A stretch of DNA of 41,532 bases from Candidatus Thalassarchaeaceae archaeon. Lineage in GTDB: Archaea > Thermoplasmatota > Poseidoniia > MGIII > CG-Epi1. Below the pieces are notes generated by a model. That model was not told where the DNA came from, made no database searches, and saw only the letters and a program-made list of their open reading frames with translations. Positions 3,101-17,074 of the stretch are shown in pieces. Each line of letters begins with the position of its first letter. Position 1 is the first letter of the stretch. Location of the stretch: assembly GCA_963577905.1 (NCBI GenBank), contig CAUYZR010000003.1, positions 1 to 41,532 of the forward strand, given 5' to 3'. A program made the translations under genes and the position numbers.

Positions 3101-3460
3101 GTGCTGGGACACGAGTATATTCCTATAGGGATTTTTGCGCTTATTGCGCTTTTATTTCCTGTAATGACCTTCTTCATCGGAAGGTTCTTCCGACCCAATA
3201 ATGATAATGCTCTAAAAAATTCGACATATGAGTGCGGTGAGGTTCCCAGAGGTGAGGCTCACATCCAGTTTCATTTTCAGTACTACATGTTCGCTATACT
3301 CTTTGTCATCTTTGATCTGGTAGTGGTTTTCTTAATCCTGTGGGTTCAAGTATATCTTGTTCTTGAGGTATCTGCTAAAGTTGTAATGTTGCTATTTCTC
3401 ATGTTAACCTTACTAGGTTTGTGGTACGCATTTAGGAAAGAGGATGTAATCTGGATATGA
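3101..3460 (+). CDS. nuoA: Complex I-like oxidoreductase subunit A
   Basis: KNSTYECGE, FQYYMFAILFVIFD; three hydrophobic segments. Confidence 0.95.
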   Translation: MLGHEYIPIGIFALIALLFPVMTFFIGRFFRPNNDNALKNSTYECGEVPRGEAHIQFHFQYYMFAILFVIFDLVVVFLILWVQVYLVLEVSAKVVMLLFLMLTLLGLWYAFRKEDVIWI

Positions 3461-4098
3461 GTTCTAAGAGAGTACGTGGTAATCCTAGCCTTAGAAGAGG
3501 TGTGGGATCGCAAACAACTAATTCGGACAAAATAATGGAAGATCCTCCTGCAGGAGATTGGCTTACTCTTCGTTCAGATCAATTGTTAGAATGGATAGAT
3601 AATGCAGTTTACAATGTTGCTGAAACCACAGGAATGCGCGAAGTGGTAAATAGAGTAACTAGACCAATCTTCAATTATGGGCAGAGATTCTCTCCACACC
3701 CCCTTCATTTTGGCATAATGTGTTGTGCTATTGAGATGGGTCAGGCCTCTGCACCAGACCATGATATAGACAGGCTTGGCGTAGTTTATCGTTCTTCTCC
3801 AAGGCAGTGCGATGTGCTAATTGTCAATGGACCGGTTTGTGAAAAACTGCGTCCTAAATTGAAGACACTTTATGAGCAAATGCCAGAACCCAAATGGGTT
3901 ATTGCGATGGGTGAATGTGCAATATCTGGAGGCCCCTACTGGGATTCTTACTCAGTTGTGGCGGGTGCAGATACATTCATGCCTGTTGATGTATATATTC
4001 CAGGATGCCCGGTTAGACCTGAAGCTTTGATGCATGGTTTTCTGACTTTGCAAAAGAAGATTAGAGAAAAGGAACCAGGCATGTTCTTGAGACGTTAA
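3457..4098 (+). CDS. nuoB: Complex I subunit B (N2 cluster)
   Basis: GIMCCAIEM, SPRQCD, YEQMPEPKWVIAMGECAISGG, VDVYIPGCP. Confidence 0.97.
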   Translation: MSSKRVRGNPSLRRGVGSQTTNSDKIMEDPPAGDWLTLRSDQLLEWIDNAVYNVAETTGMREVVNRVTRPIFNYGQRFSPHPLHFGIMCCAIEMGQASAPDHDIDRLGVVYRSSPRQCDVLIVNGPVCEKLRPKLKTLYEQMPEPKWVIAMGECAISGGPYWDSYSVVAGADTFMPVDVYIPGCPVRPEALMHGFLTLQKKIREKEPGMFLRR

Positions 4099-4100
4099 GT

Positions 4101-4580
4101 ATGGAAATCAAGGAGTTAATGCAAGAGGTGTCAGCCTTCGAGGGAGTTAGCAACGCTTCGATGATTAGGGATAATGTTGTTAAATTGGATATTGATAAGA
4201 ATTCTTCCAAAGAGTTCTTTACCAAACTGAGGGATGTTTTTGGTTTTGAACACTGTTCATTGATAACTGCAATAGATAATCAGCCAGAATTTGAATTGGT
4301 TTATCATTTTACATCTGTGAACAAGTCAGTTACTGTTGGATCAACAGACATGTCTGTGATGGTAGAGGTACATATATTTCTTGAACGTGATACCCCTACC
4401 ATAGAATCAATATCAGATTTGTGGGGAGGTGCCAATTGGCATGAAAGAGAAGCTTTTGATATGATGGGAATCTACTTTATTGGCCATCCGGATTTGCGCC
4501 GTGTATTGCTACCAGAAGGTTTTGCGGGCCATCCGTTGAGGAAGGATTACGTGTATGAGATACACGAGGAGGTGTGGTAA
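4101..4580 (+). CDS. nuoC: Complex I subunit C
   Basis: ANWHEREAFDMMGIYFIGHPDLRRVLLPEGFAGHPLRKDY. Confidence 0.96.
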   Translation: MEIKELMQEVSAFEGVSNASMIRDNVVKLDIDKNSSKEFFTKLRDVFGFEHCSLITAIDNQPEFELVYHFTSVNKSVTVGSTDMSVMVEVHIFLERDTPTIESISDLWGGANWHEREAFDMMGIYFIGHPDLRRVLLPEGFAGHPLRKDYVYEIHEEVW

Positions 4581-14542: not shown

Positions 14543-14799
14543 TTGACAAAGATAGTACTCAATACAAACAATTTAGTAAATTATGGGCAGGGGAGACACC
14601 CAAAGGCGTCAACATCACCAAGAGAGATGTTTTCCGTTCCAAGATGAAAAATTCATGTCAGCAGGAAGGAATTGAATTTAGTGAAATAAATGCGTATAGA
14701 ATTTTCTCGGGAGAGATTAAAGAATTAGGTTCAGACACTCAGAAGGTAGGAGATGTTAAAGTAACTAAACCACCTAGAAGGCATCTAAGAGGAATTTAA
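14539..14799 (+). CDS. Small basic hypothetical protein coupled to nuoN
   Basis: 86 aa; ATGA overlap with nuoN; exactly fills the gap to the convergent gene; no recognised motif. Confidence 0.65.
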   Translation: MIDKDSTQYKQFSKLWAGETPKGVNITKRDVFRSKMKNSCQQEGIEFSEINAYRIFSGEIKELGSDTQKVGDVKVTKPPRRHLRGI

Positions 14800-15773
14800 T
14801 TTTTGTCACTTGCAATTAGTTCATTTGCAAAAGATATTGGTACCTGCTCTAGGAGGATTTTAGTTGATGAATCAGGAACCTCTTCTAAAAATTTCCGGGA
14901 CATTTCTTGCCAGGGGGCAATCAATTCCTCGAAGACACCTTGAGCATCGCTTATATTCACGTTTTTTATGATTTCGCCAGCGTTCCCAGTTACTATAAAT
15001 TTTTCAATAGATGGTTTGTAATTACTATAACGACTTAATCTCGTGACTGGTAACGTAGGTATTCCGAGGGCTAAATCTCCTACGGGCGTTTTGGTAATCA
15101 ATGAATTCATGAGATCAAGATAATCATCGGTTATCTGATAGATTATTCCTACAGTTTCTCCGAATTTATGCATTGGTAATGCTAAGTCGGTTCGAGGTGA
15201 GATTAAGGCACCTAGTTCGGCTGCTGTACTGTATAAAGCTCCAGTCTTTTTTTTTATCCTATGAAGATATACCGATTCACTGTAATTTTCTTTATCTGTA
15301 AAGTCAGCGATTGCCCCTTCAGTTAGATTTCTGATGCATCTTGCTAGTGATTTTCCTGTGGCTAATGAGATGGCTCCATGCAAGGAACCCGTTGCAATCA
15401 TCAGATCCGCGACTAGAACTGCTGTTCTTGGGCCCAGTTCTTTCCACAATGCTGGTGCTTCACGTCTAAACTTATCTCCATCCAACCAGTCGTCATGTAT
15501 CAATGTTCCACAATGAATCAATTCCAAGGCCATTCCACATTCAAATGCCAAATGTGCGTCTCCACCTAGAGAATCAGATACTAATCGGCAAAGTACGGGC
15601 CGTAATTGTTTTCCATCACCTACGCCTTTCTCGATTAGGGGGGCTACATCCTTTGATTCCTTGCCGATTTCTCTTTTCAGATGTCTTTGGAACTCGGCTC
15701 TGACTTCTTTGTAATAATCGTTTAAGTTCTCTGAGATTGTCAGATTTTCCTTTAATCGTGTTGATTCTTTCAT
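14796..15773 (-). CDS. Polyprenyl diphosphate synthase (trans-IPPS family)
   Basis: GKQLRP, first Asp-rich motif LIHDDWLDGDKFRR, KKTGALY, second motif YQITDDYLD. Confidence 0.92.
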   Translation of the reverse strand: MKESTRLKENLTISENLNDYYKEVRAEFQRHLKREIGKESKDVAPLIEKGVGDGKQLRPVLCRLVSDSLGGDAHLAFECGMALELIHCGTLIHDDWLDGDKFRREAPALWKELGPRTAVLVADLMIATGSLHGAISLATGKSLARCIRNLTEGAIADFTDKENYSESVYLHRIKKKTGALYSTAAELGALISPRTDLALPMHKFGETVGIIYQITDDYLDLMNSLITKTPVGDLALGIPTLPVTRLSRYSNYKPSIEKFIVTGNAGEIIKNVNISDAQGVFEELIAPWQEMSRKFLEEVPDSSTKILLEQVPISFANELIASDKN

Positions 15774-15775
15774 AG

Positions 15776-17074
15776 TTAAATGTATTCAATACCAATTATT
15801 AGCAACAGTCCAGTTATGGTATGTATACCAATGGTTCCCCAGTTTGCACCAGCTAATTCTCGGGTATTATAGTTGTTTATTACCTGATATGAATAATAGA
15901 GGGCCACAGGTAATCCTAGTAATGAAAGAAGGGCCCCTTCCTCAACTATACTATATCTGAATAATACATATATTGAGGAAAATGCTGCAAGCATTAGGAC
16001 AAGGTAACCCCAACTGGATCTCTCTAGCCCTAATACTACAACCAAATGATGTTTACCTGCAATCTCATCTGACTTACTATCAGGAAATTGATTGATCCAA
16101 AGTATTGCTGTCGTCAGTATTCCAAATGGTATTCCAAATAAAAAGGCCTCCCATGAATGTATTCCTGACATTGCATAGATAGCCCCCATAGTCATTAGTG
16201 GGCCGTAATTCAAACCAATCAGTAATTCTCCAATTCCTTTACGTGCTACTAATCTTAGAGGATATCCAGTATAGAAATACCCCGAAAATGCTCCCACGAA
16301 CCCGTAGTAAAGTAATTCCACTTTATTATCAAGCATAATTACTATTCCTGATAAACCAGCTAAAGCTAGAAAAGATGTTGCTAAACGGAAAAGTTGTTTC
16401 TCGGTTATCAATCCCAGTTCGATAGCTCTGCTACCTCCTGAGAGTTGTAAAAAATAGTCGTTGTTGATTTGATCAGTTCCACTGGTCCAGTCAAAATAAT
16501 CATTGTATGTATTGGCAGCTAGATGCAGGAAGGATCCGCCCATAAATACCAATCCAAAGGTTAGCCAATCCATATCGATAAGTCCTCTTTGAATACCCCA
16601 GACCACGCTAGCGATTATTGGAATCCAGGTGGCACTAAGGAAAGGCAATCTTGTTATGGCAACGATTGAGATAAAGCGGGTGAGCAATGTTGTTTTGGGC
16701 ATAGTATCCCTAGGTGAAACATCTTTCAGTTCTTTTGTACGCCCACAGTAACCGATATGCCTTCCGTCTTTTATGGTTGCCGTACATGTGAATTCTGCTG
16801 CAAATTTAGTTCCGTCCTTTCTTATGAATGTGGTTTTTGTTGAATATCCTTCTCTGTTATTTCTTGCTTCTTTCAACCACTTAGCAACATGACCTAGTAC
16901 CACCATGCCAGGTGAGAAGAGAGACACTCTTTTTTTGCCCACGATTTCATTGGCGGAATACCCAAACAATTCCTCTGCGTTTTGATTGAAGGTCTCTATT
17001 CGTCCTTCCGTATCACAGGTTATTATGCTGATTACTTTGTCAGGTTCGGCCATTTCAACTCTATTAAACTTCAT
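15776..17074 (-). CDS. menA: PAS domain fused to a MenA-like (UbiA family) prenyltransferase
   Basis: N-terminal IITCDTEGRIETFNQNAEELFGYSANEIVGK..IRKDGTKF (PAS/PAC); then RLPFL, ANTYNDYFDWTSGTD, GGSR, FYTGYPLRL..GIGE, NQFPDSKSDEIAGK. The start could be 17074 or 17053. Confidence 0.85.
   Translation of the reverse strand: MKFNRVEMAEPDKVISIITCDTEGRIETFNQNAEELFGYSANEIVGKKRVSLFSPGMVVLGHVAKWLKEARNNREGYSTKTTFIRKDGTKFAAEFTCTATIKDGRHIGYCGRTKELKDVSPRDTMPKTTLLTRFISIVAITRLPFLSATWIPIIASVVWGIQRGLIDMDWLTFGLVFMGGSFLHLAANTYNDYFDWTSGTDQINNDYFLQLSGGSRAIELGLITEKQLFRLATSFLALAGLSGIVIMLDNKVELLYYGFVGAFSGYFYTGYPLRLVARKGIGELLIGLNYGPLMTMGAIYAMSGIHSWEAFLFGIPFGILTTAILWINQFPDSKSDEIAGKHHLVVVLGLERSSWGYLVLMLAAFSSIYVLFRYSIVEEGALLSLLGLPVALYYSYQVINNYNTRELAGANWGTIGIHTITGLLLIIGIEYI

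Follow-up and report, generated by a model that had tools for sequence, protein, structure and literature searches.

A complex I-like operon of a Marine Group III archaeon lacks the NADH-oxidizing head and carries predicted redox domains on NuoI and NuoM

The window analysed here is a stretch of 41,532 nucleotides from a Candidatus Thalassarchaeaceae archaeon (GenBank assembly GCA_963577905.1, contig CAUYZR010000003.1), and its main element is a remodelled operon for respiratory complex I. The host is a metagenome-assembled genome (MAG) of 86 contigs and 1.19 Mb, estimated as 68% complete, in which the window is contig C3; window positions 36622-38091 hold an archaeal 16S rRNA gene. The genes nuoA-B-C-D-H-I-J1-J2-K-L-M-N occupy positions 3101-14542 of the plus strand, their start and stop codons often overlap, and panB and carB flank the region. 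The open reading frame (ORF) listing and the Pfam matches confirm that this 12-gene order is one compact operon, as an earlier reading of the DNA (the original prediction) had claimed. Each core subunit of the 11-subunit form (A, B, C, D, H, I, J, K, L, M and N) has a Pfam match, most of these above cut-off, with NuoJ divided between two genes. All of the operon genes are conserved in register across 15 related loci and so are not chance ORFs. A scan of positions 2800-17300 for bacterial promoters and terminators gave counts equal to those of shuffled sequence (38 versus 36.7 and 11 versus 13.2, respectively), a result that is uninformative for an archaeal host. For comparison we used the order to which the genome belongs, represented by 45 species genomes: 43, including the window's own, form a family of three genera (f1) and two form its sister family (f2). 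The operon was extracted from 15 of the 42 other f1 genomes, from one f2 genome and from four Marine Group II genomes, chosen for their long contigs; the Marine Group labels of relatives rest on the source names of three database proteins.

The product of nuoM (11175-13049, plus strand, 624 amino acids (aa)) starts with a signal-peptide-like sequence, read by eye, of residues 1-26 (11175-11252) that ends in LASA before EDH; AlphaFold2 models a helix at residues 2-18 and a low-confidence stretch at 17-25. Residues 27-124 are a predicted plastocyanin-like type-1 copper domain which, together with a linker of about 14 residues to transmembrane helix 1, spans 11253-11588. The antiporter-like core follows (11589-13049; TIGR01972, 496 bits, residues 140-617). 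The added domain matches PF00127 over residues 30-124 with 53.7 bits (cut-off 21.2), has plastocyanin 2plt as its best match in the PDB (1.2e-9, whole domain covered) and is modelled with a predicted local distance difference test score (pLDDT) of 83-89. Type-1 copper proteins share the loop pattern C-x2-H-x4-M, and the four ligands H65, C110, H113 and M118 are kept in 22 out of 22 fused NuoM homologues, down to an overall identity of 62%. This conservation argues for a working copper site. With the signal-peptide-like start, the PF00127 score and all four ligands present, the exported copper domain proposed for NuoM in the original prediction is well founded. Both domains are found together in 79 of the best 120 listed NuoM protein clusters, which come from several data sources; outside the family, no cupredoxin-NuoM fusion was seen among 68 domain matches or the 120 best NuoM homologues. 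Outside NuoM, the domain has its closest relatives in Poseidoniia archaea, among cupredoxin proteins with several domains (35 of the 68 matches, 46-53% identity), which suggests that it was recruited from a local pool. Contigs from RNA libraries match parts of the fused genes with 0 differences: 11356-11673, which runs from the copper domain through the linker into NuoM helix 1, 7402-7651 in the NuoI extension described below, and 7933-8140 in nuoJ2. These contigs are short and come from three studies (shares of sampled words 0.05-0.20), so that the parts they leave uncovered are uninformative.

A second add-on lies at the opposite end of the enzyme. NuoI (6900-7676, plus strand, 258 aa) contains four CxxCxxCxxxC motifs, at residues 59, 112, 177 and 221. 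The canonical part, residues 1-165 (6900-7394), holds the first two iron-sulfur (Fe-S) motifs and matches TIGR01971 over residues 25-147 with 132.8 bits; solved NuoI chains in the PDB align to residues ~25-155 only, and none extends past ~160. The remainder (7395-7676) consists of a PorD/KorD-like 2x[4Fe-4S] domain with the motifs at 177 and 221, followed by a Ser-rich tail. TIGR02179 (PorD_KorD) matches residues 166-240 at 71.3 bits, above its cut-off of 60.05, and the two extra Fe-S motifs that had been read in NuoI are thereby borne out. None of the 16 NuoI cysteines varies across the 24 sequences aligned. Taken with the copper domain, this eight-cysteine domain agrees with the earlier proposal of redox modules on both faces of the membrane, the predicted clusters inside and the predicted copper site outside.

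The sister family offers a clue to what the NuoI domain does. In the f2 genome G019, NuoI is a 783-aa ORF (locus L026, G019:C15, 9960-12311, minus strand) with a Fer4_20 plus Pyr_redox_2 module, of the GltD/NfnB-like type that binds flavin adenine dinucleotide (FAD) and NAD(P)H, inserted between Fe-S motifs 3 and 4. The protein P0242 of a representative library has the same build. A search of 1.84 billion representatives with NuoI returned 2979 proteins at E <= 0.001, and architectures were read from the best 150. Among these 150, ~20 clusters match the window's NuoI in each of its halves; ten of these distant proteins, from other metagenomes, were aligned and all keep the 16 cysteines, and the four-cluster NuoI is therefore not unique to this lineage. 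The same 150 include fusions of NuoI and the dicluster domain with FrhB (P0275, P0334), NuoI-GltD-like proteins (P0288, P0307), a NuoI-polyferredoxin (P0248) and a NuoH-NuoI fusion (P0302). The NCBIfam model PRK13984, 'putative oxidoreductase', represents the NuoI-GltD type and matches the window's NuoI over residues 25-149. A GltD-related flavoprotein that replaces NuoI in mbx-like operons is described by Degli Esposti 2015 (PMC4758237). From these architectures, the extra dicluster domain would appear to be a recurring connector at the electron-entry end, which stands bare in family f1. As further observations on the compared groups, f2 has genomes of 2.6-2.9 Mb, a G+C content of 59-63% (two loci examined) and many genes for 2-oxoacid:ferredoxin oxidoreductase (POR), without an oxidase. 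The Marine Group II operons (L027-L030, from G021, G023, G026 and G027) are enlarged in other ways: they encode NuoI proteins of 320-334 aa with only two Fe-S motifs, ~124 residues apart, and their NuoH, NuoL, NuoN and NuoC measure 482-511, 759-768, 555-587 and 217-223 aa.

NuoJ is split. nuoJ1 (7681-7944, plus strand; PF00499 1.2e-21, model positions 1-62 of 146) encodes helices 1-3 as a gene of its own, and nuoJ2 (7928-8710, plus strand, 260 aa; other gene callers start it at the ATG at 7937) encodes one transmembrane helix, an insert of ~190 residues and a second transmembrane helix. Residues 210-252 of NuoJ2 match PF00499 model positions 103-145. On the DNA, helix 4 lies at ~7946-8017, two fibronectin type III (FN3)-like domains at ~8087-8290 and ~8318-8581, and helix 5 at ~8624-8704. 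An AlphaFold2 model built from a 45-sequence alignment (mean pLDDT 79.7) has beta-sandwiches at residues 51-118 and 128-215, and the top Foldseek matches of the insert are tandem FnIII pairs (E ~1e-4, probability 1.00), in agreement with the pair of beta domains noticed earlier; the two domains stand at a different angle to each other, which keeps the TM-scores to such pairs low (0.2-0.3). PF00041 (fn3) matches NuoJ2 at 7.2e-5 and 23.4 bits, under its cut-off of 25, and is precomputed on 7 of 120 listed NuoJ2 homologues. The reading frame recurs in 129 homologues. NuoJ2 is much less conserved than any other subunit: identity is 57% among loci of the genus and 36% between these and the other two genera, compared with 74-92% and 55-81% for the rest. 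Beyond a near-invariant Cys pair NuoJ2 has no cofactor motif. Since the pair is the fastest-evolving part of the operon and lacks a cofactor motif, a precise docking role, one of the two roles that the original prediction offered for the added modules, is doubtful; it is probably a non-redox structural ectodomain.

Two smaller additions complete the set. For NuoL (9007-11187, plus strand, 726 aa), the alignment to solved NuoL/NdhF chains does not begin before residue 42, leaving ~40 extra N-terminal residues. Within these, the Kyte-Doolittle mean reaches 2.57 over residues 13-31, and a hydrophobic helix of residues 13-32 (9043-9102) can be placed there, as had been claimed. Downstream of nuoN, and unnoticed in the earlier reading, lies orf86 (14539-14799, plus strand), whose start overlaps the nuoN stop. 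It encodes a hydrophilic, basic protein of 86 aa with 23 invariant alignment columns and no cofactor motif; no Pfam or NCBIfam family matched it, and a search of a protein atlas gave no usable match. We regard it as a candidate lineage-specific soluble accessory subunit. A predicted complex of orf86 with NuoI scored 0.26 against a mark of 0.32, which gives no verdict and is used neither for nor against an association.

The core that carries these domains has the features of a quinone reductase. The best solved relatives of NuoD are NdhH and 49-kDa subunits (7eu3_H, 1.7e-87). Quinone-binding NuoD proteins are marked by the His of GPQHP..HG and the Tyr of a ..DY.. loop; in the alignment, NdhH 7eu3_H has a His and a Tyr where the window's protein has those of 'gpqhpmthg' and 'rlcyas'. 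NuoD scores 284 bits with PF00346 and 21.5 bits, under cut-off, with PF00374, the family of the NiFe hydrogenase large subunit. By its sequence, then, NuoD is of the quinone-reductase kind and not a NiFe hydrogenase large subunit. NuoB contains GIMCCAIEM, GECAISGG and GCPVRPE, and the pattern of cluster N2 cysteines in NuoB is CC..E, C, CP. Two extensions that the original prediction did not mention were also seen: ~55-65 basic, hydrophilic residues precede the part of NuoB covered by its family model (3457-3650), and NuoH exceeds the Pfam model by an N-terminal stretch of ~55 aa (5671-5850) and by internal insertions. For this epipelagic archaeon of the class Poseidoniia we predict an 11-subunit complex I-like enzyme that reduces quinone and pumps protons.

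The NADH-oxidizing head is missing. The NuoF family, PF01512, has 0 matches in the window's genome, 68% complete as it is, and is absent from all nine high-quality genomes of the Marine Group III order (0/9); the NuoE and NuoG families were not searched separately. FrhB (PF04432), the input subunit of FpoF/FqoF type, and Fer4_20 (GltD-type) were each found in none of five genomes, four of them high-quality, and the FpoD, FpoI and FpoL models score the window's proteins under their cut-offs. Among the 45 genomes of the order PF01512 has three matches, one in f1 and two in f2. The lone f1 match lies in a bacterial-looking nuoD-E-F-G fragment (L038, G006:C62, 3-4003) on a 4.6-kb contig of 35% G+C; because G006 already has the archaeal operon, this contig is most likely mis-binned. 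The two f2 matches sit in a 1049-aa ORF with neighbours that look HdrA-/MvhD-like by eye only. These results support a headless enzyme, and both the absence of nuoE/F/G or fpoF from the operon and the genome-wide search for nuoEFG that the original prediction proposed came out in its favour as far as PF01512 and FrhB were followed.

The add-ons differ in their distribution. The four-motif NuoI and the FN3-bearing NuoJ2 are each present in 15/15 of the f1 loci, in the one f2 locus (where NuoJ2 is larger, 385 aa) and in 0/4 Marine Group II loci, and orf86 follows nuoN in 14/15, 1/1 and 0/4. The copper domain is present in 14/15 f1 loci, 0/1 in f2 and 0/4 in Marine Group II. At the level of whole genomes NuoM was matched in 40 of the 43 f1 genomes and the copper domain was covered in 37 of these 40, the exceptions being G034, where NuoM is cut by a contig end, G052, where it starts at contig base 25, and G008; the copper domain is missing from the NuoM of f2 and of 10 Marine Group II genomes. 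The NuoL extension is found in 9/10 loci of the same genus and 0/5 of the other two f1 genera, was not seen in f2 and is not comparable in Marine Group II. Judged from these loci, the add-ons appear nested by age: the NuoI domain, the FN3 pair and orf86 order-wide, the copper domain family-wide and the NuoL helix in the genus only. Such different phylogenetic depths indicate that they are not one co-inherited package. The original prediction would have failed had the fusions been patchy and independent among relatives; the set proves stable within the family, which favours it, and its pieces were acquired at different times, which does not.

The window's genome also encodes the downstream part of an aerobic chain. 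Contig C43 holds an A-type oxidase locus with COX1, COX2, COX3, COX4, CtaA, CtaB and SCO1, in which COX2 has the full CuA motif CxExCGxxHxxM. Contig C5 encodes a Rieske-like protein with a Tat signal (19.3 bits) together with a split cytochrome b; the Rieske match of this protein is 16.9 bits, under the Pfam cut-off, and the name 'Rieske-like' is accordingly tentative. The genome search for Rieske/cytochrome b and haem-copper oxidase genes that accompanied the original prediction was thus positive for the CuA oxidase and, tentatively, for the Rieske-like/cytochrome b complex. The sole Rieske match at 1e-5 in this genome, a 355-aa protein on C29, was judged oxygenase-type by its length and N-terminus and set aside. 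In sister family f2, COX1 above cut-off and Rieske were found in 0/2 genomes each, and NuoM is not fused. This pattern, in the two lineages compared, is consistent with the copper fusion having arisen together with the aerobic chain. In G048, which is 94% complete, the only PF00127 domains found are those of NuoM and of one giant protein.

Quinone-related genes adjoin the operon. A trans-polyprenyl diphosphate synthase gene (14796-15773, minus strand; PF00348 5.7e-37) borders it in 14/15 f1 loci as well; every NCBIfam equivalog scores under cut-off, and its chain length is not assignable. Next to it lies a gene for a PAS domain joined to a MenA-like prenyltransferase of the UbiA family (15776-17074, minus strand; PAS_9 1.2e-11, UbiA 3e-26), and a UbiA-family neighbour with PAS was found in 9/15 f1 loci plus one cut by a contig end and was not seen in f2 or Marine Group II. 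Against MenA equivalogs this protein reaches 111 bits at best (NF004751, cut-off 264) and 64 bits with TIGR00751 (cut-off 102). On these scores it appears secure only as a member of the UbiA superfamily, MenA-like by best match alone. The convergent minus-strand pair described in the original prediction is therefore present, and the MenA identity given to one of its members falls short (111 against 264 bits). In five genomes the MenB model TIGR01929 gave nothing above cut-off, with crotonase-like matches only, and PF02621 (MqnA/D) gave no match. The remaining genes of the operon, all on the plus strand, are nuoA (3101-3460; PF00507), nuoB (3457-4098, 213 aa; PF01058), nuoC (4101-4580; PF00329), nuoD (4574-5674; PF00346), nuoH (5671-6900, 409 aa; PF00146 8.9e-98, residues 61-389 on model positions 6-297), nuoK (8658-9005; PF00420 4.1e-27) and nuoN (13049-14542; PF00361 2.5e-70). 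The true start of nuoK is probably near residue 16, since relatives align from that residue of the query.

We propose that the operon encodes a headless complex I decorated step by step, in which the NuoI domain serves as an adaptor for electron entry and the NuoM domain as a tethered carrier; taken as a whole, we would accept this reading about as readily as we would doubt it. At the entry end, the PorD-like domain with its predicted two more [4Fe-4S] clusters would extend the Fe-S wire past the canonical NuoI clusters. That it acts as an adaptor is suggested by f2, which has a GltD-like module inserted in this same domain. Because the domain is bare in f1, electrons would most likely arrive through a small soluble carrier such as ferredoxin or through an unrecognized docking dehydrogenase. 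Direct donation by a ferredoxin-type protein is our tentative choice, at somewhat less than an even chance, and a docking dehydrogenase is the less probable donor of the two. At the far end, NuoM has no redox centre and, by analogy with complex I structures, presumably lies roughly 100 Å from the quinone site. A copper domain there cannot serve the catalysis of complex I itself, and its partner must be another complex. A CuA oxidase requires a one-electron donor. Given a genome with a Rieske-like/cytochrome b complex and a CuA oxidase, the domain, exported by the Sec route and tethered to NuoM helix 1, is most likely a membrane-anchored one-electron carrier of this aerobic chain. Such a tether would place the cytochrome b complex and the oxidase beside the distal arm of complex I, and a supercomplex of complexes I, III and IV may be inferred from it. 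The FN3-like domains in the NuoJ helix 4-5 loop would probably be a spacer or contact element, the NuoL helix may add an anchor at the genus level and orf86 may be a soluble subunit. A stronger version, that complex I scaffolds a respirasome free of cytochrome c, with the plastocyanin-like domain as an obligatory carrier swinging between the Rieske-like/cytochrome b complex and the CuA oxidase, both of which would have to assemble on the distal arm, with the FN3 pair and the Reeler-like domains of COX1 and of the cytochrome b operon perhaps positioning them, and with NuoI as a universal socket occupied in different lineages by GltD-like, FrhB-like or ferredoxin donors, we consider quite improbable.

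Several observations weigh against the proposed roles. On the input side, POR_N, found in the alpha subunits of 2-oxoacid:ferredoxin oxidoreductase, was detected in 12 of the 42 other family genomes and in 4/9 high-quality genomes of the order, and was not found in the window's genome (68% complete); the POR gamma domain is present in 2/5 genomes. NADH-forming E1 dehydrogenases occur in 5/5, so that the donor could be NAD(P)H acting through an unrecognized module. Ferredoxin as the electron source, suggested by the original prediction, therefore stands as only one possibility. On the output side there is a second candidate relay. The COX1 protein (L034, G000:C43, 4463-6739, minus strand) has an N-terminal extension of ~210 aa made up of a signal peptide, a secreted beta-rich domain with GCSCH and a helix. 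The Rieske-like/cytochrome b operon opens with a gene for a 229-aa secreted protein with GCTCH and a weak Reeler match (G000:C5, 35637-36326, plus strand; L047, 4638-5327). This protein and the COX1 extension are paralogues (28% identity, E 6e-13), and the atlas groups the COX1 extension with Thermoplasmatota 'Reelin domain' clusters. A relay from complex III to complex IV through this GC[ST]CH Reeler-like domain is possible, and the copper domain may then not be needed between them. Several family genomes also encode other cupredoxin proteins, some of them beside oxidase genes. Both the start of NuoM and the loop between NuoJ helices 4 and 5 would presumably lie on the positive (P) side, by analogy with complex I structures; for NuoM the signal peptide agrees with this. 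The RNA-library contigs are compatible with carried-over DNA. Finally, G008 has NuoL and NuoM in a single frame of 1234 aa without the copper domain (L019, G008:C5, 6297-10001). PAS-UbiA of this locus shares one reading frame with a piece of CarB (L019, 12675-14543), an odd joint which suggests that the NuoL-NuoM frame is probably a misassembly.

Further cupredoxin proteins were seen in these genomes. In G002 two giant secreted proteins of 1371 and 1098 aa with C-terminal cupredoxin domains (G002:C21, L035/L036, 13374-17489 and 17609-20905, plus strand) adjoin oxidase, CtaA and CtaB genes, and the 1371-aa protein, the only one scanned, has EF-hand-like motifs. In the window's genome, contig C30 encodes an 806-aa YHYH protein and contig C13 a 2619-aa open frame that also contain cupredoxin domains.

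The alternative that survives best is that the add-ons are unrelated decorations of the lineage: NuoM would merely anchor one of its many cupredoxins, the FN3 pair would be an envelope spacer, and there would be no I-III-IV supercomplex. Archaea lack an outer membrane that would retain soluble carriers, and anchoring would suit them; the ages of the add-ons differ (order, family and genus), the copper domain comes from the local cupredoxin pool (35/68 matches) and the FN3 pair evolves fast. However, the fusion and its four ligands are kept across three genera, even at 62% NuoM identity, and a single helix would suffice as an anchor, whereas the 14-helix NuoM fixes the position of the carrier. 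We consider unrelated decoration distinctly less probable than the tethered carrier.

A little less probable again is that the enzyme works in practice as an NAD(P)H dehydrogenase, with the bare NuoI domain docking a separate flavoprotein and ferredoxin playing no part as donor. The f2 flavoprotein, inserted in this very domain, speaks for it, as do the E1 dehydrogenases present in every one of the five genomes, the failure to find ferredoxin-reducing oxidoreductases in most family genomes and the GltD-related replacement of NuoI in mbx-like operons (PMC4758237). Against it, Fer4_20, FrhB and NuoF were not found in four high-quality family genomes or in the window's own, and the sole candidate partner in the operon, orf86, has no cofactor motif. 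That the fusions are assembly or gene-calling artefacts is extremely improbable: the MAG is fragmented (86 contigs, 68% complete) and the relative G008 has aberrant joints in the locus, but the same frames are seen in 15 independently assembled loci and recur in 79 of the best 120 listed NuoM clusters from several sources and in 129 NuoJ2 homologues, and an RNA-library contig spans the junction of the copper domain and helix 1 with 0 differences.

The proposed enzyme with its adaptor and tethered carrier can be set beside known systems. The ferredoxin-dependent NDH-1 of cyanobacteria and chloroplasts and the archaeal Fpo/Fqo enzymes have the same 11 core subunits in the same order and no N-module. 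NDH-1 supplies the closest solved relatives of NuoL (6hum_F, 1.6e-116) and of NuoD (7eu3_H, see above); from Fpo/Fqo the enzyme differs in the lack of FpoF/FrhB (0/5 genomes) and in the FpoD, FpoI and FpoL scores under cut-off. None of the solved complexes that were matched aligns past NuoI residue ~160 or before NuoL residue 42, and neither a NuoM with an attached cupredoxin nor a NuoJ with FN3 domains is known to us from a solved complex. With the PRK13984 and mbx-like NuoI-GltD proteins it shares a NuoI-type dicluster that connects to an alternative flavoprotein, for electron input or output; the difference is that family f1 has only the dicluster, without the flavoprotein, in an enzyme of Nuo type with a quinone-reductase NuoD rather than of Mbx type. 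Carriers joined to membrane enzymes are also known: caa3 oxidases have a cytochrome c domain, and the III2IV2 supercomplexes of actinobacteria have the dihaem QcrC. NirK-plastocyanin fusions occur in Halobacteria and Thaumarchaeota (PMC11237513). In all of these a covalent link holds a small one-electron carrier to a membrane enzyme, so that a tether replaces diffusion, but the host enzyme there is itself the redox partner, whereas NuoM has no redox centre and the partner would be another complex. In the mitochondrial respirasome (I+III2+IV), complexes III and IV sit beside the membrane arm at its ND4/ND5 (NuoM/NuoL) end. The likeness is in the extra domains on core membrane subunits and in the NuoM carrier at the same end of the arm; here, by contrast, the domains are fused, the carrier is a copper protein and not cytochrome c, and the supercomplex is only proposed.

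The enzyme family, headless forms, modular NuoI fusions and fusions of carriers to redox enzymes are already known. A NuoM with a cupredoxin, a NuoJ with FN3 domains and the union of both with a bare dicluster on NuoI were not found described in the literature searched, whose coverage did not extend to the main genomic account of epipelagic Marine Group III or to the supplements of the survey of archaeal fusions; within that coverage the architecture is undescribed, as the original prediction had supposed. Complex I is among the best-studied membrane enzymes; the prevailing view, to our knowledge, is of a redox-inert membrane arm and, in prokaryotes, a bare outer face. If our reading is correct, the family-wide fusion of a copper carrier with NuoM would give a first hint, at the level of genes, that the carrier of the downstream chain can be positioned by a prokaryotic complex I, and it would imply a hard-wired supercomplex in abundant uncultured archaea of the ocean. 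How electron-input modules are swapped is a long-standing question for the headless enzymes of archaea and many bacteria, and the series from a bare NuoI, to NuoI with the dicluster, to NuoI with a further GltD- or FrhB-like flavoprotein is a natural experiment on the gain and exchange of such modules.

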